DNA from: an uncultured Planctomycetia bacterium
GTDB taxonomy: Bacteria; Omnitrophota; Gorgyraeia; JABMRG01
DNA: 64,000 bases
Direction: 5' to 3'
NCBI GenBank assembly: GCA_964634945.1
Contig: CAZWMG010000002.1
Coordinates: 102,661-166,660 of the forward strand
Both the position numbers and the translations under genes were made by a program. The notes beneath the pieces were generated by a model that had not been told where the DNA came from, did no database searches, and saw nothing but the letters and a program-made list of their open reading frames with translations. Shown piece after piece: positions 33,501-60,675 of the stretch; the stretch's first letter is position 1, and the number at the start of each line of letters is the position of its first letter.

Positions 33501-36500
33501 CGAGGTTTTCTTAGGTCAACTTAAAGAGACATCCGATCCGATAGGCGCGGAATTCAGGATAAATGATAACAAAGGAATGGCTATAAAAGATATTGCAAAA
33601 CAGACCGAACCTTTTGTTATTGAAACAAGATGGTATAGCAATGAAAAGTTGAGAAAGCAGATTGCCACTAATGAAGCAGGAACAGCGGCTACTACTATCT
33701 ATTATAACCAGCAGACAAACCAGGAAATAGGCAGAATAGTAACCAATGAAGACGGGACATTGATAGTAGATATAGGCGTATTTGAGGGATATGATGAAGA
33801 TCATAACGCTATTGTACAGATGATAGATCCTGTAAGAGCCAGCATGAAGGTACATGAAATAGAGGAACTTGCCACAGAGTTAAGGCAGGGTAATAACTTA
33901 ATTATCAAAAGAGACAATGGCAAGATAAAAATAGGCACGTTTGCCTTTGATCCAAAGGTTATTATGGAACGCAGATACAGCGGACAGTATCTTGTTTCGC
34001 AGGAGACAGAATCAGTTGCCGGAAAATCGTGTATACAGGTATACTATGATAAGAACAGAGTGCGTGAATCGGGCAGGGTAGAAAGAAATGTAATGGGCGA
34101 TCTGGTGGGTATAGGCAGATTTATAGGGTATAACGAAAGAGGAGATGCCTATGTAGTAATGCTTGATCTTAGAAAATTGACATCGTTATCAGGATTAGGC
34201 AGAAATTTAGTTCACATGCTTGAGGAGGGCAAAGAGCTTCCGAATAACTTTGGTATACCTGAGGATGCTATGTTTTTGAAAAATTTAATTGAAACCAGGG
34301 TATATAGCGGTGAAAGATTGATGCACTCTACAATATCAGGAATTACAACATCTGTATTTTACAATAAGGATACAGTTCAGGAGATAGCAAGAATTGAAAG
34401 AACACGCGTGCCTGTATACAAGATAAGTGATAAAGGTAAGGTGACAGGAAGTGAGGCCCTTACTCTAACAGAAGAGGGGGATGTAGATTTTAAAGGCAGA
34501 ATAACCAGCATAGGTACGTTTAAGGGGTATGATAGAGAAGGAACAGGTATCTCTACTGTTGAGATGGTAGATACGCGAAGGGCTGGATTGAGCCATAGTA
34601 AAAAAGGACCAAATAGCAGCAAGCCTGTTGATAGTAGAATTCAAAATATAATGGCAAGATTTATCAAGGGAGAGCCTGTATTTTTGCAAGATGACGAATA
34701 TAAAATATTTCCAAGAGCTATAACAAAAAGGCAATATTCAGCAGAAGACCTTTATATCGAAACAGCTTTTTCAGAGGGTGGTTTGGTAGAAACAGAAGTA
34801 AAATATAAAGAAAACTATAAAGGTGAAAAACTCCTTTCAGAAGAAGGTAGGAAGGCATATGGCGTAGATGGTAGCGACGCTACACGAAAGCGCATGCTAA
34901 GACAGACAGGCCTGCTGTTAGGATATCAGGAAGAAACCGGATTTGCCAAAATAAGTATGAAAGATGAGATTACTGGCAGGGGATGGACAGAGATCCATAA
35001 TGTTGCAGGTATTGTAAAAGAGCATATAGAGGTTGACTCAGAAGGTATACTTGACCGTGCTGTTTATAATTACGATGAAGACTGGTTGGCTACTACAAGT
35101 GAAACAGAGGTTATTGATGGAGATGGAACAATAGCAGGTACATCGTATCGTGGGAAATTTAAAGGTTATATTAATGGTTACGCTTTAGTTGAGCTCCAAA
35201 ACGTGAAGAACGAAGATACGTGGCAGGAGCTTCTTAATCAGATAGGTGAATTAAAAGCAAAGGCACAAGGCATTGTAAAGAATGGTAATTTTATAGCGAC
35301 AACAACGGATGTCTTTGATTACGAAGGGCAATTAGGATTATTAGGCACAACCACAAGTATACATGGATATGAATATGACCCAGCTATATCTTTTATCAGA
35401 AACATGCTGCGTAAAGACACGCAAAACGCGGTTACGGAAAAATACGCTATTGATAGATACGGCATAAAAAGACCGGTAGCAGAGCTGACTAGAGCCGATT
35501 TGATAGATGGGAAACCTCTTATACTTTATCACAGCAGGTTAAATGATTATGCCTGCCAGAGCCTTGATAATAAAGAAGGCCAGGTAAGAGCAAAGATAGA
35601 AGGGCTTATTGTAGAAGGTAAATTTGTGCGCCTTTCTATAGAAGTCCCAAGATATATGGGCGTATTTAAACATTTTGGCCATATGTCAAAAAGCCGTGTA
35701 TATCGATACTTCCAGAAGCAAGATCTGGCAAATGACCTTAAGGTTCTAGAAGGCCTATGGGATTTGCACGCAGATGAGACGGATACAGATATTGCCAAAG
35801 CGCTGATGCAGGAAGGCCTATTAAAATATAAACGCATGTTAAGCAAAGATGGTGCAGCTATCCCCATTGAAGAGTTGACGTTGGATGACTTCATAAGTAT
35901 AAGTAATGATATGATAGATATTAAGAATGTTCCTTTATACCAGACCATTACGCCGCTTTTTCAGCATGCGGTTCAAGAGGCAGAGGATGGCAGAGGAAGG
36001 GTCGCGCTCAAATATACAATGGAAAGACAACAGGATGGTACATTCATAAGGAGAAAAGCGGTGTTTTTGAAGTATTATGATGACAGGAAAGACCCCCGTG
36101 TCCCTACTAGCAGCCCTAAATATGGACTAACTGTCATAGCGGATCACAGCAAGACGAATGCGGTTCATAATAACGGCAGCATAAACTATGGCAGGCCCGT
36201 GGATGAGTCTTTTTTTGAAGGCCTTTATAATAAAATGGTACGCATAAGACAGCATGGTTTTGAAAGTAAATTAACCTCGCTGGTAGACAGGAATGGCTGG
36301 GGCAGGGTTGCTGCTAAGCATGAAGGAGTTCTTGCAGAAGGCGAAGAATGGAACAGGTACGCTAAATTTATAGCTACAAGGCACATACTTAAGCATTATG
36401 ATGACTTCACTGAGAATGGCCTGGGCATACTGCGCGTAGCAGACATGGGCCAGACATATGTAATCACAAGCACGACCAAAGATGGCTCATACATATATGA

Positions 36501-39500
36501 TGGAAATTCACCTTTTAAGGTATCGTGGTTTAAGGAGATAGCAGAAGATGCAGAAATAAAGAACTATATCTTAAACCTTAAGATGTTAGAGTCCTGGTAC
36601 GAAAAGATGGATTCTAATGGATTATTAAGAGAGTTTCTTATTACATATGCGGATATGTCAGGCATGTTCAAGCCTTTCAGAGAAGCATTAAGTGACAAGG
36701 CTGCCCACGATATTGCAAACAAGAACTGGGGCGTAATCAGTGAGAATAAATCCAATGCAAGGTTTGATTTTGATCCATCAGTATCTGAAAAACTTATTTA
36801 TCTATATGGTAAAGACAACTATGGGGTATCTAACATACCGGACATGGTGAAAGGTTTTTATATTGGTTTGGCATATAGTAATGGCAGACTAGATAAGAAG
36901 GATGGCGCCAAAACACTTTTTGATCAATCAGTATTGTATTCGGATCCAAAACTTAATATCAAAGAAGTAGATAGCAAGGGTAATGTTGCGTATTTTCGCG
37001 AAAACCTAATATCTGGCTTACCTCGTATCTTTGTTAAGAATAACAGAGGATTTCCTATAGATGTACGATTTGGATTTATAGATCCGGTTACAGGTGAGAT
37101 GATAACGCAGAAAAGAAGCACGTATAAGTATGGCAAAAAAACGGATATCGCTACTGCCGCCAGTACGTTTTCGATTTTTGATACAAGAGATATGTTCGTT
37201 TCAAGTAAGTCTATCATGAAAGCACTTTTGTCAAATGGCACAATTCTTGCTCAGGAATCTTTATATAGTAGAGTTGGGCTTGGCATCAAGCAGTTTGAAA
37301 AACGTACTAATGCTTATAAAACCAGAGGCTCTAGAAGGGTTATTGAGAATGAAGGTTCAAAATCGACAATAGAACTTAATAGGTGGGGGCTTGAAGAATC
37401 TTCTCAAACGTTGGATAAGGGTGACTACATAACACTCGCGGTCTCTGATGACAAAATAGGCGTAGATAGAAGTAGTTTGTCAGTTCCGGTTAAAGAAAAA
37501 ACAGGCATTATTAAGTATAGAGGGGTTATGCTTAATCCGTATTTTCCCGATAGGGCCCCTGAATATTATGAAATAAGGGAAGTGCTCTATTATAATCAAT
37601 CCGGAGATGTTATGTTTAGAGGTGATGAGTGGAGTGATAGATATGGAAATATTGTTGTAAGGGTTGTAAACAAGCATACTAATGACGGCGACGGATTTAT
37701 AGCGACCTATTTCTTTAACAGGGAAGGTTATAAAGAGTATATTGCAGATAGTGTACTTAGCCAGGATAAGACTAAAAACATAAAGCTTACTTTTTCCAAA
37801 AAAATCGACAAAGAAATCGATGCCAGCGAAAGTGAATATTTATATCTACATATTGACGTGGAACCTTCTTTAGCTGGAGATATCGAGTATTCTCTGATTG
37901 TTAGAGATGAGAATACAGAGGCCATTATTAGCCATGACTCGCTATTTAGTCCCTACAGTGGCAATAAAATGCGAGAACCAACAAGAGAAGATCCTGAGCG
38001 CGAAAGCGCGGTTATCACGAATTCAGAGTGGAAAGAAGACCAATCTGTGCTGGTCTTGCCTGTTAAAGAACTGGTTAATCAGGGTATCGATGTATCGCAT
38101 ATCAGAGATATGGAATTAATATGTAAGTCCGGATTTAACGGAAGGATTAGAATTAGCCCTGTTTACAGGCTTGGCGACGCGACAGGCTTGAGCCGCGTAA
38201 AAGTACCTAAATTAGAACAAGAGGCCTTACCTGTCGTTGCTCTGCGAAGCGCCGGAGAGCATGTGATTAAGAACGCGCGAGTCAACATAGAAGGTAAAAC
38301 TTATTATACGCTTACAAGTATTTATAGTGCTGCTAATACACGTTTACGAGATGAGGTAACTATAGAGTACATAAATGAGCTTAATGGTAAGGCTGAAACA
38401 AAGAGTATCATTATCTATTATGACGAATATGGCAAATATCCGGTTCTGAGCGTAGACAAATTGACGGGAGGCAATCCACGCGCGTATGCGGTAAGAGAAA
38501 AAGATGGATGGATATATATATGTTCCACGCACCCTATTACAAATATAAAGTCAGAAGGCGCTTTTAGCAAACAGGCCTTAAGGGATGATATCCCGGCGTG
38601 GGAAAAGCGCGGTGAATTCGTAATGATAGCGAAGATGGAAAAGGGTATATTGGAATATGACTATAACAAGGCTTATAATACACTTATACAGTATATAGTA
38701 AGGTCGGTTAAGGGTGAAGATGTTGAGCATTACTCCAGTTCTCTTGCGCCGCTTATGACGCCTGATTATCTTATCGAGCTCCTTGATTATACAGGAGAAA
38801 CCCTTGCAAAGGAATTTACCAGAAACATAGATGTTGATGTTCCCGAGTATGATCTTTCTAATATCTCCCCTTACCTATCAGGTGGAGAGGTTTTATCTAG
38901 AATGCAGAGCTTTAAAAAGGCATTTCAGCCTATAATTCAACACCAGGCGCGCGCCCCTGATGATAAAAAACCAACGCTCTTTTTAGACGCAAAAGACTCT
39001 GATATAATGAGCCTATATGATAACAGCATATTAATGCCCGCTTTGTGTATGTCAGGCCAACAGCAAAAGGCAAAAGAGATAATATCGTTTGCCTTATCCA
39101 CCCCACAAGATGCTGAGACCGGTTTAATATATGACCAGTTTTACGCTAAAACAAACCATCCTAAGCTTGGAAGCAGTAGAGACGTTACTTTGCATTCAAA
39201 TGTTTATTTTTTAATCAACTCATTAAGCTACTATCTTGAAACAGGAGACGATGATTTTCTAAAAAGTACAATAGATCTGGCAGATAACCTTATCACAGGA
39301 CAGTTATTAGACCGGGAATCAGGTTTATATTTTGAATCGACAGCGATACAAAGTATGGTAGCGCTCCAGTCTGATTATAGGGAGATTAAAACTGACGACC
39401 AGATCCTTATGCTTAATCTTTGCGATGCGCTGCTAAGTGACCCAATAAGGCAAAATATCGGAAACAAGCGCATCGCGGTAATTGAGAAAACAAGAGACGG

Positions 39501-42500
39501 CATACTATTGGCGCTTAAAGATAAGAAATTAGTAGACTCGGAAAATTCTATTATTTACAGGGGTTTGTATAAAATATTTAAGAAAACAGAAGATCACCCA
39601 TATACTTTGTTAGGTTACGGATTTATGCCAGGGCTCTCAAGCAAGTCATTTTTAAATGTTATTTCGTTTAATGCTGACGGGGATAAGCTCAATTTGAGTT
39701 TCAAAGACGTTTTTGATAGATTCGAGTCTCACTTTATAGTATCAATCGGAAAGATTAATAACGATGTTATTGCCGGACCAAACCTCGCAGGCATTGACCA
39801 GGGCGATGTTATATACACAGAAGAGTTGATGAGCCTAATAAACCTACTCCGCTTGGAGATAGAAAATTCCAGGGATATAAAAAACAAGGATTATTACAGG
39901 AGAAGGTTGGAATTCTATTCAAGGTCTCTCAGTCACATAGTTGATATGTCAAAAAACTCCAGCCTGATGGATATTCCGCTGGTTGTATCCATGCAAGATG
40001 GCAAGATAGCGGATACATCCAAAAAGAGTGTGGCTCACAGGCACAGGGCAGCAATTTTAAATAACCTTTATCGTTCATCAATAGTCACTTCAGCGGAAAA
40101 CTTTTACAGCAGTATAGGGTATTCACCTGAGAAGATACAGGGCGGCACATTTTTCCGAAAGCTAAAGATAGCAGCGGATAGACAGGCATCTATGCAAAAA
40201 TCCGAGACACAAGAGATCTCAGATGAGAGTTCGAAAAAATATATTATCGCCTTTATTCTGATGATAGCGGCGTTGGCATCTCTTGGTATAGCAAGTTCTT
40301 TTTACAAGGCAAAGCCGTACAAGTCGACCAAGCCTTCTCCGAAAGGTGATGACAGCGGTGATGGAGAAGGTACCCCTCCTGCTGATGAAGGCACAAAAGA
40401 AGCTGTTGTGGCAGCAACGGTATCAAGCTTACAGAAAATTACTATAAAGGCACTTGCTATAGTTAAAAAGGCGAGCCTGCCGAAAAAACTGATGATCTTA
40501 GCTGTTATGTTAGCAATACCGCTCTTACTATCTAATCCGGCATTGTGTGCTGGATTAGGTCTTCTAACTCAACAATCAGTTGTTGCCCTTACCGGTCTGC
40601 CGCTGATATCTTCCGCTTTGAATTGGATAAGCTCATTAGGTGCGGTTAAATTAATATATATCGCGGTATCGCTTGCCTTTCCGGCGTTAATCCTTGCTTC
40701 AAATTACATAACCTCTTTCGCAAGAAAGATATGGTTTAGCACTAAGATGCGCAGTATCGCAAAAGATGGCAAAGCCAAACTGTACGATAAAGATGACATG
40801 GAAATAGCCCTTACCAGGTGGAACAATATGATTAATATGACCAGCGATGTTTCAGATAAGGAAAATAACGTTGTTGTAAATCACCCCAGAGTAAGGAAGG
40901 CAGACGGACCGATTGAGGTAAATTTCCTTTTTAGTCTTCGGGTTATTTATACATTGGCATTAAAACAACATAAAGAAGAAACAAAATTAAGCGATGACGA
41001 TCTTATAACAAAGACAGATGACCCGCTACTTAATGGCCTTGACACTTTTGTACTTATGGTTGGAATGTATATGCGTAAGGTTATCTATGACTCAAAAAGA
41101 GATGAGAATGGCCAATTAGTAGATAGTAACCACATATGGTCAAGGCTCGAATCTTATTTTTATGAAAAGAGAGAGCTTCTAAGAGATGCGATGTCACAAA
41201 ACAATAAAGCGGAATTTAATGATATACTGATAGATATGGGGATTGCCCCGATAGCGCAAAAGAGCGCAACAAATGAAGCGATATTGGAGATAGTCGAAGG
41301 TTATGGAGATGCAAGCTCTGAGGAATTCAGAGACGAGCTGGCAGAAAGAATAGGTGTTTCAGCTGAAGATCTGGGTGTAAAAAAGTTTGTAGAGGATTTT
41401 GAGAATTTTACTATACAAGAGGATTTGGCAAAACCTATCCATCCATGGGCGCTGCTCGCCGCGCGGCTATTGCCAAGGTTCCTGCTTGCTGCGGTTGGAG
41501 CGCTTATATTTAAGGCAGAGGCATTAGGCGCCACTGGTTTCTTAGGTGCTTTTATCGCAGGCCCATTAGCAGCTTTATGGCCTTATCTTGCTATTGCGGG
41601 AATAGTTATTATTCTGGGCTCATTGCTTAATCTGTATATTGGTAGGCATGCTAAATTAAATAAACTATCCGGTACATTAGGCACTGTTTCGCGTCTTACA
41701 AAAATAGGCGCATTAATCGGGCTTACATGCCTTGTTGCCGCTATTTCGCTTACGCCATTAGCTGCGGCAGGCGCTCCTTTAAGCATAATGTGGTTAGCCA
41801 AGCTTATTATAATCAGCTATCTTACTTTCGAAACATTTAGCCAGATATTCTTCAGGCATTCAATAACATGGCTTTCTCTTAGGTATCATTTCTCACCAGC
41901 TGTATCTACGGGTGGCCCTGGTTCTGTCATATCATATGTTACTTTATACGCGCTTACAATAGCTTTCGGAGCGCTTATGGGATTTAGTACTTATAATTTC
42001 TTTGTACAGTTTCAAGCTTTAGATACAATAGGAAGTTTCTTGCAATTAGTAGGGGGAGTGCTTGTATTTATTAATACCTTATATTTGACTAATTATGGTT
42101 TCTGGCAGATGCTTACCGGTGCAGCTTCAGGGGCCGTAAAGTTCCCACTTCAATTATCAGCCTTGATACTTTCTGCCGGAGTCTTTACCTTTGCCTTGCC
42201 GGCATTCTTACCGATTATACCTATTGCCGTGTTACTGATAAATAAGGTTATTAGTTGGATAGTACCTTTAAATAAAAGAAAGCGCCTAAAAGATGAGGCT
42301 GATGAGCAAGATAAAAAGACAGTTCTTGTATATATGGGCGGTGACGCGCTTGGCATGTTCATTAGATTGGCTGATCCCGTAGGGGAATTTATTAACAGAT
42401 GGAAAGCCTTAAGAGGAGAGAATTCCGAAGTTCTTAGTGCAATCAGAAAAGAACTTGGCTGGAAGGGCCTTACTTCGGAGAAAGAATTAGAGGTAGTAAG

Positions 42501-45500
42501 AAAATGCCTGGAAGCATTAAATGCAGCGGAACAAAAAGATAAAGTTAGCCTATTCCATTTGAAGCAGCTTGAAAAAGAATCTGATATGCCAAATATTTTG
42601 AAGATAAATCCAGGTACAGAAGAAAATAAGAAGCTTATAATAGATGGCTGGAGAATAAGAAGGCATCTGGTGGAGATGCTTGGTAAGGCAGGCTATGCTC
42701 AGGATACAGGGATTAATCTTGCAGAACAGGCAGAAAGAATAGGCCAGGATAAAAGCCTAAGCGGTAAGGTATTATTCTATTTCATGCAGAATAAGTATAA
42801 TATGGGCACCGGAGGTGAACCGTATAATTTGAAAACCATAGGGCTTGCTGATGGAAATGATTTAGGCCAGAGAGAACTTCTGGCATTGTTGGTGGAATAT
42901 TTCTTAGGTAACGCAAACAAGGATACGGAACTTATAGATCCCCCTAAAGCGGCATATGTATTATATGACTGGACGCCGTTTGGTTTTAAATCCGCTGCTA
43001 TGAACGCTATTGATATGGTTCCCGAGCACTCATCAGATATAGGTTCTATGGTTGTTATGGACAGGGATGCCACGGTCCATGATCTGGATAGTTATATATA
43101 TGATTTAAAACGAATACGCCGTGATGAAGAGATCGCGATAATAGTGCCTGGCAGGGGAACTACCAACACGCTTACTACAATAGGCAAGGCTTCACAGCTT
43201 ATAGAGGAAGGCCATAGATCGTATTTAAGCGGTGTAATGGGGCTTTTAGGCGGAACTCAGGGCGAGTTCGTTGGTACAGGATGGGGCAACATGTTAAGAG
43301 TTACCATGGCAGAGTCTCTCGAAGCGCTAGGTGCTCCGGATTACCCAACACCTTCCATTACCAAGGCGTTACGAAAAAAACATAAAGGATTCTTTGATAG
43401 GTTATTTGCCAATAGTTTTGGCCTTAGAGGGTATGTACCGAATGCGGTTGGTATAAGCGAAGATATTTGGGCTGTTGTTCAGGCCGGTGAAACGCAGATC
43501 GGACTTGGTAGAATTCCGAAGATGCTCGTATCCAAAGCCTTTTGGCACAAGATACGAGAGACCTTTACTCACGCGGAATGGTTTACAGCCTTTCCAAGGT
43601 GGTCAGGCGGCCTTATGCAGATGAACAATGATATTATTATGCAAAGAGCAACATTCTTTGGTCCGTTTAGTGTCTTTGCAAAAGAGGTGAGGCAATTAGG
43701 GGGCGATTTCTTCACTAGTTCACCTTTCGCGCTTCTTAATATATTGATAATGACCGTTGCGGTATGGGGAGGATTCAGCCCGTTTTATGGTATCCTGCTT
43801 GGTTTTTGGCTTGTAGGGTTTGTGTTTACTAATATATTAATGGTTCATGGGCTCATAGCTTATCTTGAAGGAAGCGGCTTTAATACCATAACAGCATTAG
43901 CCTCAGGTCTTATAGTTGGGGCTTTAATGCCATGGAACCTGCCTCTTATCGCAATAGGTTTTGTTCTTGGAGGATTCATCGTAGGCGGTAGTAAGTGGTT
44001 ATTAAGCAGGCCAAGGGATATGATATTATTTCCTTTACAGCTTGTTATACACGCCTTTGCGCAGATTAAAAACGCCTCTTTGATATCTGTTAAGGCCGCA
44101 AGAAAGCTGGAATCTATGGCAAGTAGGGTCAATGATAACGCAGGTGCATGGGTAAAAGATGCTTCAGAAAGAATGTCTCTCAAGTTTGGCTTATCAGGAG
44201 CAGCATTACCTGTTTCTAGCATAATAGATATACCTGCGGTTAAGAGTGATACCAAGAAAAACTTTATAAGCATGCGCAACATAGCATTTTTAGGAGCCGG
44301 GTCTGTTTTGATAAGCATGGTTGCAGTATACGCGCTTAATATCCAAAATGTTGTAATGCTTTTGGCGGGATTGATATTTAGTGTAGGTATTCTTGAAGGG
44401 CCAAATTATACAAATTTAAAAGAAGGTGGTTATTGGATACGGAATGAATATATGCGGAGAATAGTTGTTTTTGCGCTTAATATTATGCCAAAGGTAGCAG
44501 GAGCAACAGTTGCCGTAACAACGCTTGTGTGTTTACATTTCGCCAGAATTATGCTCCTAACCAATCCATTGGCCGCAGCTATACTCTTTTCTTCAGCTAT
44601 CGCTATAGCAGGCATTGTATATGGCGTATGGAGAAGTACAGATCATTATAAGGTAATAGCTCTACATAAAGCTATCTTGAAAAAGGCTAAGGATAATAAG
44701 AGTATTTTAGAAAGTATGCATCTAAAATATGGCTCAAATGTAGAGTTTAATGACATGACTAACCTGGTAAAGAATAATTACAGGGATATGCTATATGATA
44801 TTGTAACAAGCAAAGAGTATAAAGGCCCAGAAGCATTTGTGAACCACTTAAAAGACTTAAAAGACTTAAAAGACTCAAAAGACTCAAAAGACTCAAGAGG
44901 CTCAAAAGACTCAAAAGACTCAAAAGACTTAAAAGCCTCAAAAGAGAAAGACTTAAGAAAAATAATTATAAGTAAAAGCTTGAAAAAATTAGATACAAAT
45001 TTACTGATTAAGAGAGAGATAAGAACCAGGCTTGTTTCAGAGTTTATCCGCTCGTATAGGCTTAATCTACTTTTGTTCGTATGGATATTTCTCCCAAGTT
45101 TACCGGCGAATATTAATTACTTTCTGCATTCAGGAGGAGACCGTATAATAGAAACAGCATCAGAGTTTTTCAAGCCATTTGTCTTGCCTCTGCAGGTAAT
45201 GTTTTATTATATATTAGCAGGGCAGATTGTTGGTTCTGTGCAGCTTGCATATTGGAAAAACAGGACAGTTAAGATTACAAGGGGTATCGACAGGTTACCG
45301 TTAACAGGCAATAGACAAAAAGCAGAGGCATTATTGTCTTTACTTAAGATATATCTGGAGCAGAGGAGTTATGGTTATGTAAAGAAGACATACAATGATA
45401 TTAAGCTTGTTTTGGGTGCAACGCTTGATTCGTCTCCGATAGAGAGTACACAGGACGATTCTCCATCGCAATCGCTATCACAAACAGCTACTGGTTTTGA

Positions 45501-46583: not shown

Positions 46584-49500
46584 ATGTTTAATAAAGCAAG
46601 AAAAGCTTTTTCTTATTTAGTATTATTTTCTTTCTTTTTGAATAATACAGCTTATGCGGAAATTGCTAACAATTCTACATTGCGATGTATATCTTCTGCC
46701 AATGCACACATTGGGCAGAAGATAGCAAGCAACTTTTTAAATGCCCCACCTGATATAAAATCTTCAAACATTAAAACCTCCTCATCCGGCATTATAACTC
46801 CTGAAGATATATTCACAAGAAAACTCGCGTTAGCGATAATTAAGCCGGATGTCAGTTCTGATATAAATAAAAACATAGCAGCGAATAAGAGCCTCTTTAG
46901 CAGGGATGATATAATACGAGAGCTTGAAGATAAGGGTTTCGAAGTAATAACTACTTTACCTGCAAACGTTTTAACCAGAAGAGATGCGGAAGAGTTCTAC
47001 TCAGAGCATAAAGATAGGCTATTTTTTAGCGATCTTATTGAATATATGACATCAGATGAAAGTGTACCGGTTATATTGCGAGGCCCGGAAAACGCATGGC
47101 AGAAGTTAAGAAATGTTTTAGGGGTAGTGGATGGTAACGAGCAAAATACTTTAAGAGAAAAACTTGGCGCGCATAGGAAACAGCTTCCCGGCAATGTTAA
47201 TATCATATACAACAGAATACATGGATCTGATTCATTTCAGTCAACACTTAGAGAGATTCTTTTCATTGCGGATAAGATGCAAAGTACGCCTTTTCTTGGA
47301 TCCGGCGAAAAACTGCTCATGTCTTTGTCATTGGAATCAGATAGGGCATATTTCTCAGCACTTTACAGGCAGTATAAGCTTCAGTTGCTTGTATTAAATA
47401 GAGCACGTTTCTTAATCAATGCGGATGCTTCGCTGACAAAAGACGACGCTCTTGTAAGAGCCACAGCTTCGATAACAGCTGAACTGAAAAAAACAGGAAG
47501 AGATAAAGACGCCTTAATATTAGCGGATTCCAAGCCGCTTATTATTGGTCAAAGCTTTTTTCCTTCAGCACTACTTTCAGATAAGGATTTTAGAGATAAG
47601 CTAGGAGCGGTTCAATATGATGATATTGCTAATGACCCTAGAAACATAGAGGCCGCGACAGGTGTAACAATGGTACAAAATCCATTAAATGGCGGCATAG
47701 GCCAGGCAATGGACAGGTTGGGTTTCTTAGAGGCTATTTGGCCGGCAACCGGGCGAATAGGAGTGCCTGTGCTTGGCGCAAAGGCTATGGACTGCTATTT
47801 TAATGTTAAGGTAGTAATAAATGGCCAGGAAAAAGAAGCATTTGTAAGCGTTGCTGAAGCTACTATACTCTCTCTTCTTAACGAAGTAGAGAGAGGCTCA
47901 TATAGGCATGGCATCTTAGAGGAGTTTATAAGTAGTGAAACAAGCCAGGCAATGGAAGATCTTAAAAATACAGTATATCTTTACGATAGGCTCGACCCTT
48001 TTAAAGCCGACAAGAGGACATATGGCAATATACTTAAAGAGAAGAATATGTTAGGAATAATGCCGGAGCAGGCGATGTTTCCGCGTTTTGACGTAGAAGA
48101 TAACTACAGGCTTACTGATAAGTATACAGCTCCTGGAAGCCATGGACATTGGGGCGTTTATGCGCTTTCTAACATACCTGATGAAGAACTTCCACAGGAT
48201 GGGAGTATTCAGATAAGGAGCATATTTAATGGCGATGGCATATCTAATTCACCGAACAATGTTATAGCAGGTTGGATGGCGAGAGAAGGCGCGCCTGTTA
48301 TAATGATAACAACCACAAGAGCTCCGATAGATGTAAAGGGTGGTATGTTGGGCGTGGAATATTTAGATGATGAAAAGGTTAGAAAAAATATGCTTGAATT
48401 AGCAGATGCAAAGACAAACGACAAGGAGCAATCTGGTCAGGCTGAACTCTTCAAAAATATGGGTATCTCTGAAACGGGTAAAAATTTTGGCAAAGAAGGC
48501 ATGCAGCTTTTTAATACTAACACAGTGCTCTTGAATGATACAGTTTTGCAGCCATTTTTAAGAGAGTTACGAGAGACACTTGGCATAGAAGAATATAACA
48601 GGGCGATAAGCCCAAAGATGATGATGAAATCTGTTGTACAGAAAGATGGCAAAGAGTATGCCCAGTTAGAAGGCGCTATGGGTTCTTCAATGCTTAATCT
48701 TGCCGGATTTTTATCTACAAATAATGACCCACAGATAATAGACTTATGTAAAAAACATGGCATAGATCCAAATCTATTTTTACGTTTAGTCAATATAGAC
48801 GTAAATAAGAGGACAGATTTCTTCGCTCCTATAAAATTTCCTATAGATTACTGGTTGCAGTTTTTTAGTGACCATTTTACAGTCGATACAACTACATGGA
48901 AGCTTAAGAACCTAAGGCCCGGCCATCTGCCAGCCCTGGATACGCCGGATCAGGATAAGGATGAATACTACTCGAATGTGCTTAATCTGTTTAACCTTTT
49001 TGGAGATAAGGGTGTATTAAATAAAAATAATCCTGTAATGACAAGTACAATTGGCCTTGATCTGCTAAAGCTACGCGGTAAGGTTAAAATAGCCGGTTCA
49101 ATACTACGGGGAAATGTTGTAGTGATAAATGAGGGCGATGGTGTTGCTGATTTAACTACTGGCGAGATACAAACGAAGTTGCTTGCCGATAACATGGTAA
49201 GCCTGGATAATGGCAAGCTGGTCTTAGAGGATGTTGCTATAGTAATAAGGGAGAATGGTAAGGATATAAAAGCAGCTAAGTTGCAAAATAAGGAAAGCAT
49301 AGATATTGTAGTTTCTGCGTTAGTTTCAGATAAGGCCTCCTCAGCAGGCATGAATCAGGAAACAGATATTCCAGCCATCAAGAGTATTGTTCACCAAGCT
49401 AGAGCCGCTCTGACGCAAGAGCGCAAGAAAGGCATAGAATTCGGAACCAGCGGTTTTAGGGGTATAAATAGTTTAAATGAATTAACCGTAGCTATTACAG

Positions 49501-52415
49501 CGCAGGCAAACGTGGATTATATAAAAGAAGCTGGTGACAGAGATAAGGTATTTGTTATCGGCAGGGATACCAGAGAACAGGGGAATGACTTTATTATGAT
49601 TACCGCGGCAGTATTTGCTGATAATGGCATAAAAGCAGTTATCTCGGACGGATATACACCAACTCCTGTAATTGCACATGCCACTGTTGCTAATGCATAT
49701 GGCGGAGCTATAAATTTTACTGCAAGTCATAATCCCCAAGAGTATAAAGGATACAAGTTTACCCCCTCGCATGGCGGGGCTGTGCTACCGGAAGTAACCG
49801 ATGTAATACAGTCGAAAACGAACGATTACCTAAAGCGATTGGAGTCGGATAGCGGAATTATAGCTGCCTTGAATAGCCCATACCTAAAAGCTGCTTTGAG
49901 TTATAAGGAGATGTTTGAGTCTTTTGTTAATTCCGGTGATATTAAATTCATCGATCCAGTAGAGGCTTATGTAGAGTATCTTTTTGGTCTTGAGATGCAA
50001 GGTGTAAAGATATTTGATAAGGTAACAGATTCCCGGCTTGGTGTTATAGCAAGCGGCTTGCATGGAACAGCAGGCCCTTATTTTGAGCGCATCTTTGGCC
50101 CAAAAGGATTAAATAAGCTGGCAGTAGATGTTTTAAATAGAGCGCCAAGAGAAGACTTCGGCCGTTTTAAGAGCCCCGAGGCAAAAGAAGCAAATCTTAA
50201 GGATGTAGTAGATCTTGTCACTAGGCTTGATAATGTGTTAGGTGTTTCAGGTGACGGTGATGCAGATAGAGAAGGAATTATCGATATAAATAGCAAGTTT
50301 ATAGAACCGAATGAATTAGCTGCTATATTTTATTGGTATCTTCATGAGATAAAGGGTCTAAAAGGCGGCGTTGCAAAGACTGTGGCGACTACGAACCTTC
50401 TTAATGTGTTAGCAGGTACGTTTAATGAAGAATGTTATGAAAAACAGGTAGGTTTCAAGAATTTTATGAATGAGATACTTAGCGGAAAGGCTATTGTGGC
50501 TGCGGAATCGAGCGCTCACATAGGAATAAACGCTGTGTCCTGGGATGACGCTTTTTTATGCGCTCTATTAACATATCAGATACTCTCTGATAAGGACAAT
50601 ATTAAGGAGAAGACAGGCGTTGAATTGAAAGCCCTTACCGATATCTTAGATTATATACAGAATAAGGTTGTTAGCAGTTATTTTAGTTTTTATGAGGGCA
50701 AGATACCGGCTGATGAGGCGACAAAGAGCCTGCTTTTAAGCTGGAATCAAAGCCCCGAGATGCTTAGCAGAAAGCTTGGTGAGGAGCAATTGTTATCTAT
50801 CTTGCAATACAATAATTTAGAGGTAGCTCAGATAAGCACTTTGCCAAAAAAGGGGATAAAGGTTGTTCTTAAGGATAGAAGCTGGCTCTGCCTAAGGCCT
50901 TCAGGCACTGAACCGCTGGTAAGATTATATGCGGAAGGGGCAGATAAGGCTGCGCACGAGGCGTCTAAAAAGAAGGAAATTCTTAAAAAGATAGCTCAAG
51001 CTTTATTGAAGGTTGATAAGGAGAAGCAGTCATTAAAGGCCTCCTCATCCGGCACTCAGAGCGCCCAGGATAGTGTAGAGTTAAGCTCTATCAGCAGACT
51101 TTTTTCTCAATTTGTATCCGAAAAGAATCCAGATACTTTAAGAAGTTTGATAAAAACAGCCAGAGAAGCTATGAGGGATACTTATGCAAATCCAGATAAG
51201 AAAGAGATTCTTCACAATGCAATTCTTTTTGCGGAGATGAGATTACTTAGTGAATTTCCGCCAGAATCAACAAAAGATAAGAAGAAACTCCTTTCTAAAT
51301 ACGCGGAATTGGAAAGGCAGTGGCAGAAAATGTTTGAAAAAATGTCACAAGATGCCTATAAAGTTTCAAAACGATATTTTCCAGATGAGTATAATGTGTT
51401 GCAATATAAGCTCAAGATGTATAAGGATTTTTTAGTTGTGCTTAAGCAAGATATGGAAGAGCTAGAAGATAAATTGCTACAGCAGATCTCAGATGCAAAA
51501 TCCTCCTCAAGTGGTGAGAGCAAACTCTCCGCTGAGAGAGCGGATGCTATTGAGGCAGAGCTTGGACATCTCTTTGATATTACAAGAGAGACTATGATAG
51601 AGGGTCTAGCAAAACCACCTATTGTAAAAATTGATCTAGCGAGAGATGATTTCCTGTCTATTGAATTTGCGCTGCTGCTGGAGAGATATAGGCAGATGGC
51701 TGTAAAAGAGTTTGGGGAAAATATAATAATGGATATCTTGCCTAGTAGAAATGGGAACGAAGGCGTGCGTGTGGGCATATCAGTAAAACCAGATAGCGCA
51801 GCAGTTGAATATAAATCTTCCTCATCTGGTATATTGCTTACTGAAAATGATTTAGGCCTTATTGAACTCGCCGCTGATGTAGCGGACCTAAGTGACGCAA
51901 CAGGTACAATAGTATACGATGATACAGCAATGTCAACAGAACAGCAGGGAATATTACGGAACCTTTTAGGCAAGGGTACACAAGGTTTAGCTGACCTAGA
52001 GGCAAAACTGGGATGTGATGTAAGGCTAATGTCACAAGGCGATGTATCGGATAACGCGAATACAATAATAATCTCAGACGGAGAAATTCCGGGTTTTCTT
52101 AATGCCAAATACTTAATCACAGAGCAGACACAGATAGATACTAGTTATATCGCGGTAACTCCTCTCATAGCGATAGCAAAAGGATTATTGGGGCTAGACA
52201 ACATAACAAGCCAGCCGGAACTATATGAAGCCCTTAAGAGTTCAATAAGAAGCATAAGTCAAGGCCTTCTAAATGCAAGCGATATAGAAGCTGCCATAAC
52301 CGCCTATATAAATGGCAGCCCAATGCTTGTAAAATTACCGCCTGCGTCAGTATATGATTATGATAAGCTTGAGCAGTTGTATCGTCAGGCGCTTATGGTA
52401 TTGATCTCCGCGTAA
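46584..52415 (+). CDS. 1,943-aa fusion protein: nucleoside-diphosphate kinase domain + eukaryotic-type UTP-glucose-1-phosphate uridylyltransferase (UDPGP family) domain + phosphoglucomutase/phosphomannomutase domain + Lys/Glu-rich C-terminal region. It has an N-terminal signal-peptide-like segment.
   Basis: NDK (~46815-47250): KLALAIIKPD...GFEV...FYSEHKDRLFFSDLIEYMTSDESVPVILRGPENAWQKLRNVLG...NRIHGSDS. UGPase (~47450-48950): LNGGIGQAMD (LNGGLGTSMG), APGSHGHWGVY (PPGHGDIY), FNGDGISN, TRAPIDVKGGML (TRADVKGGTL), FNTNTVLL (FNTNNLWI). PGM (49430-50990): GIEFGTSGFRG, TASHNP, GDGDADR, RPSGTEPLVRLYAEG. SD GTGGGGGATAAG before ATG. Signal: MFNKARKAFSYLVLFSFFLNNTAYA. Confidence 0.88.
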   Translation: MFNKARKAFSYLVLFSFFLNNTAYAEIANNSTLRCISSANAHIGQKIASNFLNAPPDIKSSNIKTSSSGIITPEDIFTRKLALAIIKPDVSSDINKNIAANKSLFSRDDIIRELEDKGFEVITTLPANVLTRRDAEEFYSEHKDRLFFSDLIEYMTSDESVPVILRGPENAWQKLRNVLGVVDGNEQNTLREKLGAHRKQLPGNVNIIYNRIHGSDSFQSTLREILFIADKMQSTPFLGSGEKLLMSLSLESDRAYFSALYRQYKLQLLVLNRARFLINADASLTKDDALVRATASITAELKKTGRDKDALILADSKPLIIGQSFFPSALLSDKDFRDKLGAVQYDDIANDPRNIEAATGVTMVQNPLNGGIGQAMDRLGFLEAIWPATGRIGVPVLGAKAMDCYFNVKVVINGQEKEAFVSVAEATILSLLNEVERGSYRHGILEEFISSETSQAMEDLKNTVYLYDRLDPFKADKRTYGNILKEKNMLGIMPEQAMFPRFDVEDNYRLTDKYTAPGSHGHWGVYALSNIPDEELPQDGSIQIRSIFNGDGISNSPNNVIAGWMAREGAPVIMITTTRAPIDVKGGMLGVEYLDDEKVRKNMLELADAKTNDKEQSGQAELFKNMGISETGKNFGKEGMQLFNTNTVLLNDTVLQPFLRELRETLGIEEYNRAISPKMMMKSVVQKDGKEYAQLEGAMGSSMLNLAGFLSTNNDPQIIDLCKKHGIDPNLFLRLVNIDVNKRTDFFAPIKFPIDYWLQFFSDHFTVDTTTWKLKNLRPGHLPALDTPDQDKDEYYSNVLNLFNLFGDKGVLNKNNPVMTSTIGLDLLKLRGKVKIAGSILRGNVVVINEGDGVADLTTGEIQTKLLADNMVSLDNGKLVLEDVAIVIRENGKDIKAAKLQNKESIDIVVSALVSDKASSAGMNQETDIPAIKSIVHQARAALTQERKKGIEFGTSGFRGINSLNELTVAITAQANVDYIKEAGDRDKVFVIGRDTREQGNDFIMITAAVFADNGIKAVISDGYTPTPVIAHATVANAYGGAINFTASHNPQEYKGYKFTPSHGGAVLPEVTDVIQSKTNDYLKRLESDSGIIAALNSPYLKAALSYKEMFESFVNSGDIKFIDPVEAYVEYLFGLEMQGVKIFDKVTDSRLGVIASGLHGTAGPYFERIFGPKGLNKLAVDVLNRAPREDFGRFKSPEAKEANLKDVVDLVTRLDNVLGVSGDGDADREGIIDINSKFIEPNELAAIFYWYLHEIKGLKGGVAKTVATTNLLNVLAGTFNEECYEKQVGFKNFMNEILSGKAIVAAESSAHIGINAVSWDDAFLCALLTYQILSDKDNIKEKTGVELKALTDILDYIQNKVVSSYFSFYEGKIPADEATKSLLLSWNQSPEMLSRKLGEEQLLSILQYNNLEVAQISTLPKKGIKVVLKDRSWLCLRPSGTEPLVRLYAEGADKAAHEASKKKEILKKIAQALLKVDKEKQSLKASSSGTQSAQDSVELSSISRLFSQFVSEKNPDTLRSLIKTAREAMRDTYANPDKKEILHNAILFAEMRLLSEFPPESTKDKKKLLSKYAELERQWQKMFEKMSQDAYKVSKRYFPDEYNVLQYKLKMYKDFLVVLKQDMEELEDKLLQQISDAKSSSSGESKLSAERADAIEAELGHLFDITRETMIEGLAKPPIVKIDLARDDFLSIEFALLLERYRQMAVKEFGENIIMDILPSRNGNEGVRVGISVKPDSAAVEYKSSSSGILLTENDLGLIELAADVADLSDATGTIVYDDTAMSTEQQGILRNLLGKGTQGLADLEAKLGCDVRLMSQGDVSDNANTIIISDGEIPGFLNAKYLITEQTQIDTSYIAVTPLIAIAKGLLGLDNITSQPELYEALKSSIRSISQGLLNASDIEAAITAYINGSPMLVKLPPASVYDYDKLEQLYRQALMVLISA

Positions 52416-52552: not shown

Positions 52553-54352
52553 ATGAAAAGTATTCTTAAAAAAATAGTTACCTGTTTAGCGACAGCGACC
52601 TTTCTTATTAGTAGTCCTGCCTACCCATCTTCTATGGATACTAACACATTGCGTTCAAAGGCCTCTGTCAATACTCCCGCTAGTCATAATCTGGCCGATA
52701 GGTTCCTAACCAATGATACACAAGATGCGGAAGGTGGGTTTGTTTTTCGTAAGTGGAGCAAGAAGCCTGATACTTTAGCGTTTGGTAAGTATGGAAGTTT
52801 GAGAAGAAAACCCAACAAGCTTACAGACATAGCATTAGCAAGATTTAATTCACAATTAAGAAAGACAAAAAAACGTTTACTGGATGAAGGTTTTTTTAAT
52901 AAAGAAGATTTTAAGGTTGTATTAGAGATCATCTATCCTGCCTATAAGGCCGCAACATATTCCAAGAAGAGGGATACTATTATATTAGATCGTCGTTGCT
53001 TTGGAAATGACGATTTTTTGTATTTTAAGATCAAGCACGAGCTTACTGACCGCAAATTGCCTGAGATAGATATTATAGGAGAGCAGTTTAAAGAGTTACC
53101 TGGGCTAAGAGAACTCTTTACTCTAATTACAGTGGATATCCAAGGCCTTATGCATTTAAGAGATAACTACCGAGGTCGGGCAGAAGATATATTAAAATAC
53201 TGCCGTAGCGTAGGACATCACAACAGAGGACTATTAACATGTTATGAGAAGATAATGAAGAACCCGTCGCTTAATGACCCGTTTGCTTTTACAGAGGACG
53301 TTTTCAGGCTTGTAGAGAGTGAGAGGCGCAAGGCATATTTTCCGAATACGCGTAAAGCAGTTAGAAAAATAGCCAGAAAAAATAGTGATGGCAGCATTAA
53401 TTATGAGATGACCTCCACTATATTAAGGGCTTGGTTGAAGTCAATACACAAGCAGTTTATTGAATTGCGAGATATAAGAGAGGTATCGCAATTCAAGCCC
53501 CTGACAGATTTTAATAAAAATACGCCTATATCGCTAAGGCCATTTATGCCTTACGCTAAGGAGATAGATTACCAGCTTGACAATGATTGTATCTTTCTGC
53601 GGGTAAAGATAGATGATAAAAAAGGCCGGATCAAGTACGCTTACCTTTATATAGGCCTCAATGATGATTGGAATAGTGTATTAGGAAAGCGCGGAAAGAT
53701 CTATAGCTTAACATATCATAAATGGCAGCATACCAGCTCGGGCATATTTCAGTATGTAAATTATGGTACGGAAAAAGAGAGAGGTTTATACTGGGATTAC
53801 CTTATCAGGCTTCCGGTTAGCCAGTTGATAAGCAAGCTCTGCAACAATTCAGGCCAGGACAATCTTAAAAAACTTTTTTCGGACCTATTTAGTGAGTTGG
53901 GGGTAAAAGGCGACATGGGAAGTAAGGCATGGCTTTCTGTAAAAAAGATCGTAGGAAGAAAAAAGGGGCCGAATAATTATTATGTGATAAGGGGCATAAT
54001 TTGGAAACATATTGATCGCAAGCACCCTAAATTGTTCTTAGGTGAGGATAACCTGCGTGACACCTCTGTGGGTGAGGTACCTGCCTGGTTATTGACAGAA
54101 GATTCTGAGATGGGCCCAAAAGCCCTTTCATTTTTAAATCCGCGTAAAAAATGCAGCTGCCCAAATTTTTATGAAGAAGCAGATCGCATATCTATGCGGG
54201 AGATCTTAAGGATGCTAGAAAAAGCCTCTTCTCAACCTATGCAGCAGATGAACCTTTTTGGCGCGGGAAAGCCTGCCCCTGCTGCTATACTTAGTATTTC
54301 CAATATAAGTAAAGCGCAGATTGTAGATTCTGCTATATATATTGCGGCATAG
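52553..54352 (+). CDS. Secreted hypothetical protein (~599 aa from ATG 52553; the ORF track extends to a TTG at 52517)
   Basis: ATG at 52553 is preceded by AAGGA. N-terminus MKSILKKIVTCLATATFLISSPAYPSS is signal-peptide-like. No recognisable catalytic motifs. Confidence 0.6.
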   Translation: MKSILKKIVTCLATATFLISSPAYPSSMDTNTLRSKASVNTPASHNLADRFLTNDTQDAEGGFVFRKWSKKPDTLAFGKYGSLRRKPNKLTDIALARFNSQLRKTKKRLLDEGFFNKEDFKVVLEIIYPAYKAATYSKKRDTIILDRRCFGNDDFLYFKIKHELTDRKLPEIDIIGEQFKELPGLRELFTLITVDIQGLMHLRDNYRGRAEDILKYCRSVGHHNRGLLTCYEKIMKNPSLNDPFAFTEDVFRLVESERRKAYFPNTRKAVRKIARKNSDGSINYEMTSTILRAWLKSIHKQFIELRDIREVSQFKPLTDFNKNTPISLRPFMPYAKEIDYQLDNDCIFLRVKIDDKKGRIKYAYLYIGLNDDWNSVLGKRGKIYSLTYHKWQHTSSGIFQYVNYGTEKERGLYWDYLIRLPVSQLISKLCNNSGQDNLKKLFSDLFSELGVKGDMGSKAWLSVKKIVGRKKGPNNYYVIRGIIWKHIDRKHPKLFLGEDNLRDTSVGEVPAWLLTEDSEMGPKALSFLNPRKKCSCPNFYEEADRISMREILRMLEKASSQPMQQMNLFGAGKPAPAAILSISNISKAQIVDSAIYIAA

Positions 54353-54564: not shown

Positions 54565-55209
54565 ATGAGAAAGATGTTAGCACTTAGCGCGTTGGCACTG
54601 ATTGCCGTATCATTAGTGGCAACAGGATGCGCCAAACAGGAAGAGATCGTAATTGAGGAGTTTGAGTCCCAGAACGCGGCAACGGGAAAAGATTTTAAGG
54701 TATTCAATATATATACCGATAAGTCATCTCCGGGTAACCATTATATACCTTCAGGCTGGATGGGTGATTTTAGCGACATAAAGATAAACGACCGTTATAT
54801 GGAAGGTGCGCATAGCGGCACTACCTGTATACAGGTAGAGTATCTTCCTCGCCGTTCACAGGGGGCCGGTTGGATGGGAATATATTGGCAGAACCCAGCT
54901 AATAATTGGGGATCTAAAAAGTCAGGCTTTGATCTTACCGGAGCTAAGGAGCTTGTTTTTTGGGCTCGTGGAGCTAAAGGCGGAGAAATAATATCAGAGT
55001 TTAAGATGGGCGGCATTACAGGTGAATTTTCAGATTCTGATTCCGCTGGCATAGGCCCTGCTATGCTTACATCAGATTGGAAAGAGTATAGGATAAATTT
55101 GGAAGGTAAGGATCTATCCCATATAATAGGCGGTTTCTGCTTATCCGCTAACGCTGATGATAACCCTGATGGGTTTATTATCTATCTTGATGATTTAAAG
55201 TACGAATAA
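54565..55209 (+). CDS. Lipoprotein with a beta-sandwich carbohydrate-binding-module-like domain (paralog A of 62607..63209)
   Basis: Lipobox LVATGC. Shares with the 62607 protein the blocks Y.PSGWMGD.SDI, G..C.(Q/K)V.Y, G(A/R)(G/R)W.G.YWQNP.NNWG, DLTGAK.L.FWARG.KGGE.I, G.(K/L)..D..YI.GGF, (I/F)YIDD..YE. Confidence 0.7.
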   Translation: MRKMLALSALALIAVSLVATGCAKQEEIVIEEFESQNAATGKDFKVFNIYTDKSSPGNHYIPSGWMGDFSDIKINDRYMEGAHSGTTCIQVEYLPRRSQGAGWMGIYWQNPANNWGSKKSGFDLTGAKELVFWARGAKGGEIISEFKMGGITGEFSDSDSAGIGPAMLTSDWKEYRINLEGKDLSHIIGGFCLSANADDNPDGFIIYLDDLKYE

Positions 55210-55218
55210 ACATAGAAG

Positions 55219-55270
55219 AATAGGAGATAGCGCCTCTTTTTGTCATAAAGAAAAGGCGCTCTTCCTATTT
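55219..55270 (+). terminator. Imperfect GC-cored hairpin (AGCGCC...GGCGCT with extended A/T pairing) followed by a T-rich tract
   Basis: aataggagatAGCGCCtctttttgtcataaagaaaaGGCGCTcttcctattt, located 10 nt after the stop at 55209. Confidence 0.45.
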
Positions 55271-55285
55271 ATCCGAGGTAATATT

Positions 55286-56572: not shown

Positions 56573-56701
56573 GTTCGTATAACGTTGTGCGTGATGCGTA
56601 TTGCGCAATGCTAAAACCGCAATACCTGCCTACCGGCAGGCAGGCGCGATACGAGATACTCAATACGAATATTATATAATAATACTTAATAAGGAGCAAT
56701 A

Positions 56702-58012: not shown

Positions 58013-58143
58013 AGGGGACGCCCCTGAGCATGGAAATAGATAAAATTTTGCAAAAATAATAAATTTGTGCAACATGCAATAATATATATATAGTTAAGCA
58101 AAATATAGTTATCAGAAAACTAAAAAAACGATAAAACTCAATC

Positions 58144-58166: not shown

Positions 58167-58184
58167 AAAAGTTTTAGGAATAAG

Positions 58185-59078: not shown

Positions 59079-59079
59079 A

Positions 59080-60673: not shown

Positions 60674-60675
60674 GT

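Follow-up and report, generated by a model that had tools for sequence, protein, structure and literature searches.

A shared K-x-S-S-x-G hexapeptide at module borders of a giant protein and a neighbouring multi-enzyme fusion in Omnitrophota, a candidate polyprotein-processing signal

We analyzed a 64,000-nucleotide stretch of DNA (hereafter the window; positions 102,661 to 166,660 of contig CAZWMG010000002.1, assembly GCA_964634945.1) from an uncultured bacterium placed in the Omnitrophota (Gorgyraeia; JABMRG01), in which a gene for a giant protein of 14,300 amino acids (aa; 3520..46422) is adjoined downstream, on the same strand, by a gene for a 1,943-aa enzyme fusion (46584..52415). Both proteins carry the hexapeptide motif that is the subject of this study, with the consensus K-[T/S/A]-S-S-[A/S]-G; one example of a sequence spanning such a site is NIKTSSSGIITP. 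The two genes, and all motif sites and domains given below, lie on the + strand. The fusion, delineated from the list of open reading frames (ORFs), its translation, and Pfam, begins with a leader (aa 1–63, 46584..46772) that comprises a Sec-type signal peptide ending in AYA, the element [ST]-L-R, and the residues up to the first motif; the N-terminus, MFNKARKAFSYLVLFSFFLNNTAYA|E, reads as a Sec signal peptide. The order that follows is motif, NDK and UDPGP-like modules, motif, PGM, motif, module, motif, module, motif, and a C-terminal domain that we call type A. Pfam places NDK at aa 106–228, a weak UDPGP match resembling UDP-glucose pyrophosphorylase at aa 492–707, and PGM domains I–IV at aa 951–1460, and the translation shows the catalytic signatures of NDK (HGSD) and PGM (TASHNP, DGDADR) intact. 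The giant protein consists of a signal-like segment, an N-terminal domain (N-domain), a SecA-like region, LysM, membrane clusters, and a C-terminal domain of type B. Its Pfam matches were restricted to the SecA-like region (~aa 2566–2979) and LysM (~aa 3765), and a hydropathy scan revealed the N-terminal hydrophobic segment and membrane-spanning clusters at 3220–3593, 12242–12915, and 13397–13696.

Five strict copies of the motif, defined as K[TSA]SS[AS]G, are present in the fusion. KTSSSG (46773..46790, aa 64–69) stands nine residues ahead of NDK strand 1 and is kept in the related proteins P0002 and P0005. KASSAG (49332..49349, aa 917–922) separates the UDPGP-like module from PGM, at a junction that is also motif-bearing in P0002, P0003, P0004, and P0006 despite a different next module, and KASSSG (51036..51053, aa 1485–1490) follows PGM domain IV. 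Two copies of KSSSSG lie between unannotated C-terminal segments, one (51498..51515, aa 1639–1644) kept in P0002 at aa 3023, the other (51813..51830, aa 1744–1749) directly before the C-terminal domain and kept in P0002 (aa 3128) and P0003. No motif stands between NDK and the pyrophosphorylase-like part. Strict copies in the giant protein number three, namely KTSSSG (5794..5811, aa 759–764), whose equivalent in P0026 is KASSSG at aa 755, KSSSSG (8389..8406, aa 1624–1629), and KTSSAG (45598..45615, aa 14027–14032) at the start of the C-terminal domain. Beyond these, the giant has one KSASSG variant (6721..6738, aa 1068–1073) and one decayed copy, KTSSSS (6442..6459, aa 975–980), in which the final Gly is replaced by Ser, the sole such variant in 108 family sites. 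The sites in the giant are therefore confined to aa 759–1629 and aa 14027, and the core between them, 12,403 residues including all membrane-spanning clusters, has no copy.

A first-pass annotation of the window had listed sites in both proteins and taken the shared boundary motif to suggest a common processing event, such as proteolytic maturation into modules, O-glycosylation, or covalent attachment, that would bear on how a 14,300-aa precursor becomes functional. Upon re-reading both proteins, every site that it listed exists; its coordinates are correct in the fusion and several bases off in the giant. Its placement of the fusion sites before NDK, after PGM, and between C-terminal segments agrees with Pfam, but the KASSAG site at 49332 had been missed. 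The suggestion that the motif accounts for maturation of the whole precursor is weakened, given that sites occur near both ends of the giant but nowhere in its core.

The copy numbers far exceed what amino-acid composition predicts, with five seen against 0.002 expected in the fusion and three against 0.012 in the giant. Ser and Lys are moderately abundant in both proteins (7–8% each), and SSS runs in the giant occur at expectation (6 seen, 5.6 expected), indicating that the motif is not a serine-run effect; across both proteins, each of the nine occurrences of SS[SA]G or ASSG has K-x directly ahead of it. Non-coding frames of the window contain three loose matches, a number that chance alone would give.

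The wider family gave the same picture. An exhaustive profile search with the C-terminal domain of the giant retrieved 56 representatives, pairwise no more than 50% identical, where a word-based search had given one match, and all 56 carry the domain at their very C-terminus. Named relatives, a minority of the family, are Candidatus (Ca.) Gorgyraea atricola, Ca. Orphnella occulta, and Ca. Omnitrophota. The first-pass annotation had warned of an artefact of Ser/Lys-rich composition and had pointed to orthologs as a check. As to the first, our control covered the neighbouring ORFs of the window and distant homologues, and the strict motif was absent from all ten other ORFs (4,351 aa) and from 104,754 residues of compositionally similar, more distant homologues. 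As to the second, 106 strict copies were counted in 68 related Omnitrophota proteins (101,148 residues), against 0.06 expected.

Varying one motif position at a time across this pooled family revealed how little substitution is tolerated. Position 1 was K in 106 cases and R in 9; position 2 was S in 38, T in 36, A in 32, and another residue in 6; position 3 was S in 106 and another residue in 9; position 4 was S in 106 and another residue in 4; position 5 was A in 68 and S in 38; and position 6 was G in 106 and another residue in 2. Flanking positions each held less than 0.45 bit and were of ordinary composition. Near-zero tolerance within unconserved flanks is the pattern of an enzyme recognition site and not that of a fold element.

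The motif also occupies a consistent place in the architecture of these proteins. Roughly half of the full-length members have their first copy at aa 57–65, directly behind the conserved leader. The last copy is found 174–200 or 271–290 residues from the C-terminus, where the tail domain starts; spacing between copies is domain-sized (54–2,666 residues). The leader could be aligned for 22 members and consists of the signal peptide, [ST]-L-R some 10 residues past the predicted signal-peptidase site, and then about 12–20 residues up to the motif. P0002–P0006 are 69–77% identical to the fusion over the pyrophosphorylase-like module and differ in their module sets, with the motif at most junctions. 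In P0002 (3,327 aa), seven copies separate NDK/UDPGP, NagB-like, GDPGP1-like, PGM-like, PGI-like, and small modules, and in P0001–P0006 the junction after the pyrophosphorylase-like module keeps the motif whether PGM, NagB-like, HEAT repeats, or the tail domain comes next. The class-I aldolase of P0097 (535–904) is flanked by motifs at 513 and 902, and the receiver domains of P0106 are bracketed likewise. Homologous modules take different ordinal positions in different family proteins and have thus been shuffled, and a motif is no more than 15 residues away from 47% of internal BLAST alignment ends within the family, compared with 7% under random placement.

Immediately downstream of the fusion, a third family member, ORF D (52553..54352, + strand; identified by translation and BLASTP), consists of a single module with the same type of leader (signal peptide and NTLRS) and an IYIAA-COOH tail, and it carries no junction motif. 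ORF D aa 59–568 are 50% identical to aa 1394–1913 of P0006 (BLASTP), in which this module is the last unit, ten residues behind a degenerate KPAASG. At least one module therefore exists both fused and free-standing, with the breakpoint at the motif. The giant protein, the NDK/UDPGP/PGM fusion, and the motif-free ORF D belong to one Sec-targeted modular protein family of Omnitrophota. As for the start of ORF D, the mechanical ORF begins at TTG 52517, and ATG 52553 (MKSILKK...) is the likely initiation codon. A second leader element, [ST]-[TA]-L-R-x-x-[SA], was observed about 5–10 residues past the predicted signal-peptidase site (window 46659–46772 and 52553–52730), and it is shared by ORF D.

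Considering the ~1,700-fold enrichment, the near-invariance among proteins at most 50% identical, and the location at module borders, these sequence comparisons strongly support the view that the motif is a functional boundary signal under strong selection and not an effect of Ser/Lys composition. The central idea of the first-pass annotation, a boundary motif shared by the two proteins, is thereby upheld.

Relatives outside the core of the family differ in what stands at their junctions. Only the nearest relatives of the giant share K/R-x-S-S-x-G; P0023, P0024, and P0026 carry it, and P0025 has only a KASGAG variant. Among more distant proteins with the N-domain, GARL[AS] recurs, with six GARL[AST] in the 1,563-aa P0033, four in P0056, and further copies in P0039 and P0062. 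P0027 and P0030 have two copies of RTPGTGAAR apiece, one following the N-domain and one preceding the tail domain, and [AS]SLG recurs in P0053, P0059, and P0069. Such apparently lineage-specific junction motifs are what co-evolution of a protease and its substrates would produce.

Codon usage indicates the level at which the motif is conserved. The first-pass annotation had described some copies as conserved at the nucleotide level, which holds for an exact 14-mer, CCTCCTCATCCGGC, found only at 46777 and 51040, both in the fusion gene; codons otherwise differ, in the window and in relatives. Over 26 sites at five loci (the window, L001, L002, L008, and L009), the Lys codon is AAA or AAG, position 5 is encoded by TCN, AGY, or GCN, and the Gly by all four codons. 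The middle Ser is TCA in nine of nine window sites against a background of 25%, and L002 uses TCT, TCC, or TCA. This synonymous variation implies that selection acts on the protein and not on the DNA, and a nucleotide-level element or a special codon was rejected in view of the several codons at all positions and the loss of the TCA bias in L002. Positions 3 and 4, at window 5800–5805, 8395–8400, and 46779–46784 among others, are encoded by TCN in all 26 sites and never by AGY, which makes up 38% of Ser codons in the window, a pattern that fits copies of one ancestor under unbroken purifying selection.

The domains at the two ends of the giant protein were modelled. Its C-terminal domain (type B; aa 14033–14300, 45616..46419, ending VVATQA-COOH) was defined by profile search, an AlphaFold2 (AF2) model, and Foldseek. 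The model, with a predicted local distance difference test (pLDDT) score of 78.8, has a four-strand Rossmann-like core and a terminal helix, with weak HAD-like Foldseek matches. This tail domain is the one structural model that covers a motif site: KTSSAG lies where a linker with pLDDT below 50 joins the first helix, which starts inside the motif. The type A domain of the fusion (aa 1750–1943, 51831..52412, ending ALMVLISA-COOH) was delimited by alignment with P0002 and P0003. Types A and B gave no BLAST alignment with each other, and MAFFT resolved them as two types sharing an IVY[SD]D strand and the terminal tail. We rejected a conserved enzyme as the role of the tail domain, given that S156, N183, and K184 are not kept in type A; the lack of conserved polar residues between the two types makes catalysis unlikely. 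Near-universal hydrophobic or small C-terminal endings (ALMVLISA, ALIAA, VLSQA, ALISL, IYIAA; window 52392–52412, 46399–46419, and 54329–54349; P0002–P0131) were also observed, and their conservation suggests a free C-terminus recognized by, e.g., a PDZ-type, secretion, or degradation factor.

At the other end, the N-domain (aa 50–550, 3667..5169; delimited by homologues and AF2) has an alpha/beta core with a helical insert (~300 aa) and the invariant columns D-x-H, E-G, R, and G-G-x-H. The window copy was undetected by Pfam. Its 53 homologues, proteins of 1,100–2,900 aa from Omnitrophota, Elusimicrobia, and Endomicrobia, combine it with PGM, GPI/transaldolase, GAPDH-PGK-TPI, FBP aldolase/phosphatase, glycogen phosphorylase, kinases, M48 peptidase, and more, and most full-length homologues share a similar C-terminal end (...A-L-x-S-[LA] or ...AA). 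The AF2 model (pLDDT 86.6) returned nothing significant in Foldseek (E > 0.1), with HopBA1, EreC, and BcR135 as the matches of highest probability. PF04187 was touched by three of 22 N-domain members (E 0.016), and hhalign paired KR[DN]...GGFH of the N-domain with ERD...GQAH of PrgY (P 0.0037, probability 9%). Members of the Tiki/TraB/ChaN/EreA superfamily are characterized by two strand-loop His motifs of the GxxH type, conserved Glu and Arg residues, and a common alpha/beta core. Judging from these similarities, the N-domain is possibly a hydrolase of the Tiki/TraB/ChaN/EreA type, and we consider it a candidate processing enzyme. Separately, the helical insert (giant aa ~190–315, window ~4090–4465) showed marginal profile similarity to EF-hand proteins such as centrin and calmodulin (best E 0.0012 against PDB sequences).

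Our preferred interpretation, to which we assign a probability of roughly 45%, is that the motif may be where a dedicated endopeptidase recognizes and cuts its substrate, and that these proteins would be processed as polyproteins. Such an enzyme would trim off the ~35-residue pro-segment left once the signal peptide is gone, release the C-terminal domain, and free the enzyme modules from one another, with the Tiki/TraB/ChaN-like N-domain of the giant as one candidate for this role. Specificity could derive from the invariant Lys or from the small S-[A/S]-G run, and the scissile bond could accordingly lie either after the Lys or at S-[A/S]|G. Ser-Lys peptidases such as signal peptidase I, LexA (A|G), and birnavirus VP4 follow a small-residue rule that S-[A/S]|G would fit. 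We rank polyprotein cleavage first because each junction has one rigid hexapeptide, whether it follows the pro-segment, precedes the tail domain, or separates autonomous modules, and because relatives have lineage-specific alternatives. Several observations weigh against it. The evidence for cutting is comparative throughout, and Pfam (E ≤ 0.01) found no recognizable peptidase, whether C39, C80, S8, or other, in the giant or the fusion. For the N-domain, all three measures give the assignment as a hydrolase weak backing (E > 0.1 in Foldseek, E 0.016 in Pfam, and 9% probability in hhalign), and the domain also occurs in lineages without the K-x-S-S-x-G motif. A single structural model covers a motif site and places it at the edge of the segment with pLDDT below 50, and because the flanks show no Pro or Gly enrichment and frequently have hydrophobic residues, any exposed stretch could be short. 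Finally, motif-free family members exist, among them ORF D, a 3,104-aa protein of L002, and P0120 (6,442 aa).

Other explanations account for part of these data. The motif could be an uncleaved docking signal that paces translocation or assembles modules, with a chaperone, a scaffold, or the export machinery (e.g., the SecA-like domain of the giant) as the binding partner. An invariant motif within unconserved flanks would suit any peptide-binding partner, and a constant distance separates the first copy from the signal peptide in the conserved leader; moreover, the giant has a divergent SecA preprotein-binding region, and the conserved C-terminal tail points to further recognition steps in the same system. 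However, one copy per junction at each module border, including the border with the C-terminal domain, fits separation points better than export pacing, some exported members carry no copy, and the partners named are candidates only, none having been identified as binding; we regard docking as unlikely. Somewhat less likely, in our estimation, is a modification sequon in which Ser is O-glycosylated or phosphorylated, or Lys modified, so as to protect or tune the linkers. Two invariant Ser, a third position occupied by Ser or Ala, and an invariant Lys would offer acceptor residues, and the proteins have Sec signals and are encoded at loci rich in sugar-nucleotide enzymes (NDK, UDPGP, PGM, GDPGP1, epimerases). 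Yet the O-glycosylation sequons known from bacteria, like the Ser-rich regions of glycoproteins, are less strict or consist of repeats, whereas here a single rigid hexapeptide ends in an invariant Gly. No glycosyltransferase was found linked to the examined loci, and modification would not account for copies directly behind the leader and in front of the tail domain.

Less probable again is a passive structural linker, such as a helix N-cap or a turn, whose copies are alike because cassettes spread by duplication or recombination. The modules are clearly shuffled, a helix begins within the motif in the model of the C-terminal domain, and the exclusive use of TCN at positions 3 and 4 in 26 sites looks like descent from one ancestor, although it fits unbroken purifying selection equally. 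A neutral or structural linker would, however, drift among proteins no more than 50% identical with randomized flanks, whereas all six positions are held, among them a Lys and a second position restricted to T, S, or A, and the sequences following the motif are too varied for one capping geometry. A signal in the nucleic acid itself, e.g., microhomology for recombination or an RNA-processing site to which the peptide is incidental, could draw on the two exact 14-nucleotide copies in the fusion gene and the uniform TCA at the middle Ser of the window sites, but the constraint follows the amino acid, with several codons per position over the 26 sites, and we consider this explanation very improbable and largely refuted. 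A chance product of Ser/Lys-rich sequence is refuted outright: both proteins are moderately rich in the two residues, but the copies outnumber expectation in each, K-x stands ahead of every SSSG even though SSS runs occur at expectation, and the distant homologues yielded no match.

Comparison with known systems situates the proposed processing. The gingipain/HagA proteins of Porphyromonas gingivalis (RgpA, Kgp) are secreted precursors with a signal, a pro-segment, and a C-terminal sorting domain that are cut at basic residues between modules, and the window proteins resemble them in having an N-terminal signal with a pro-segment, several modules, and a conserved C-terminal domain. Gingipain precursors, however, are cut at a single Arg or Lys by the gingipains themselves and have a beta-sandwich tail for the type IX secretion system and adhesin modules, whereas the window proteins have a rigid hexapeptide, a Rossmann-like tail, and cytoplasmic-type enzyme cargo, with no cysteine protease domain detected by Pfam. 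MARTX toxins, likewise very large bacterial proteins with several enzyme modules, are cut after Leu at inter-module linkers by an internal C80 cysteine protease, and have RTX repeats and type I secretion. Membership in this group was rejected, as Leu is absent from the motif, Pfam found neither C80 nor RTX in the two window proteins, and the leader and tail domain are unrelated.

The motif itself resembles viral polyprotein sites. Birnavirus VP4 cuts at [S/T]-x-A|[S/A]-G and sites of the LexA/signal-peptidase type are A|G, with a Ser-Lys protease responsible; these, like ours, are short junction motifs of small residues (Ser, Ala, Gly) with unconserved flanks and lineage-specific sequences; in the known systems, specificity co-evolves with the protease. 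Nothing there corresponds to the invariant Lys found five residues before the Gly, the host here is cellular and the proteins are exported, and the protease is known for those sites, whereas Pfam found no peptidase in our proteins. In cyanobactin PatE and Kex2-processed repeat precursors, one recognition sequence flanks each cassette of 6–30 residues, which lets a single enzyme liberate many products; the same short sequence flanks each unit in our proteins, but the units are folded enzymes of 100–2,600 residues. Double-glycine leaders cut by C39 peptidases, with Gly-Gly, Gly-Ala, or Gly-Ser at the cut, also end in small residues, and C39-type domains have been reported in other Omnitrophota giants. 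We rejected a C39 substrate, as the residue before the terminal Gly is A in 68 and S in 38 cases and never G, the motif is internal and repeated, and Pfam detected no C39 domain in the window proteins. Sortase signals of the LPXTG type, in which a hydrophobic segment and a basic tail come after the motif at the C-terminus, were discarded, as the motifs are internal and multiple and the last one is followed by a folded domain of 175–290 aa and not by a membrane anchor. Ser-rich repeat glycoproteins and low-complexity linkers, which have long and degenerate Ser-rich repeats, were also set aside, given the single hexapeptide per junction, SSS runs at expectation, and ordinary flanks.

The window proteins match the multi-enzyme long proteins and Archaeovorin-type giants of Omnitrophota in their Omnitrophota relatives, tiled enzyme domains, signal and membrane segments, and SecA-like domain. 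For such giants, cleavage by C39 or S8 peptidases, with double-glycine leaders cut by C39, has been proposed, and the cleavage points were stated to be unknown (West-Roberts et al., 2023; 10.1101/2023.11.21.568195). A 2026 preprint, which includes 176 complete Omnitrophota genomes, describes "multi-enzyme metabolic" long proteins in Omnitrophota and mentions neither motifs, cleavage, nor linkers (10.64898/2026.06.07.730766), and cleavage is likewise unmentioned by Seymour et al. (2023). Our literature search for the hexapeptides returned only unrelated epitope matches, and it found no paper joining Omnitrophota with polyproteins.

Genes around the family show some recurring features. In the window (174–3275) and in two other genomes, at L008 (1010–9448) and L009 (1–6595), the giant gene is immediately preceded by genes for AcrB-type RND (resistance-nodulation-division) pumps; L008 has a membrane-fusion adaptor and two pumps, L009 has two pumps, and gene order is conserved. 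Downstream of the polyprotein genes (window 54565–63209 and 63340–64000; L007 6040–11487) are two GH2-like glycosidases, an ABC sugar uptake system (binding protein and two permeases), three unannotated small proteins, a 707-aa PilZ-domain protein, and an unannotated 1,074-aa protein, the last two without the motif. In L002, too, a PilZ gene has polyprotein genes on both sides; four polyprotein genes follow one another there in tandem (565–25613), encoding 3,104, 1,870, 2,823, and >1,358 aa with radical SAM, epimerase, ROK kinase, DHQ synthase, HEAT/HD, GDPGP1, and PHP domains. Of these four, the 3,104-aa protein shows the tail ending but lacks the junction motif. A scan with the UDPGP-like module gave no match in genome contigs and one short locus in metagenome contigs.

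The domain content of the window proteins raises a question of topology. A SecA-like ATPase region (giant aa 2566–2979, window ~11215–12456) and intact NDK, PGM, and UDP-sugar enzymes are found downstream of Sec signals, so that export would part them from the ATP and UTP of the cytoplasm, barring delivery to another place, e.g., into prey. One could envisage that Omnitrophota run a cellular polyprotein system with a lineage-specific punctuation code (KxSSxG in this clade, and GARL[AS], RTPGTGAAR, or [AS]SLG in others), in which a dedicated protease, perhaps the Tiki/TraB-like N-domain, would free NDK, UDP-sugar pyrophosphorylase, PGM, aldolase, and glycolytic enzymes that act outside the producer cytoplasm, possibly in prey; at present we consider this broader scenario doubtful.

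In our study, a shared leader, junction motif, and tail domain define a family that links Omnitrophota giants to smaller secreted multi-enzyme fusions encoded beside them, and the presence of intact ATP- and UTP-dependent enzymes with Sec signals in a bacterium presumed to live as a predator or parasite is a puzzle that this family raises. The motif, as read from sequence, is the first concrete candidate for where these giants may be cut or otherwise handled, and it provides exact residues, in a defined clade, for metaproteome searches, for mutagenesis, and for splitting the proteins for structure prediction. Given that Omnitrophota giants range from 10,000 to >100,000 aa, the motif bears on the question of whether such proteins act as a single chain or as cut pieces.

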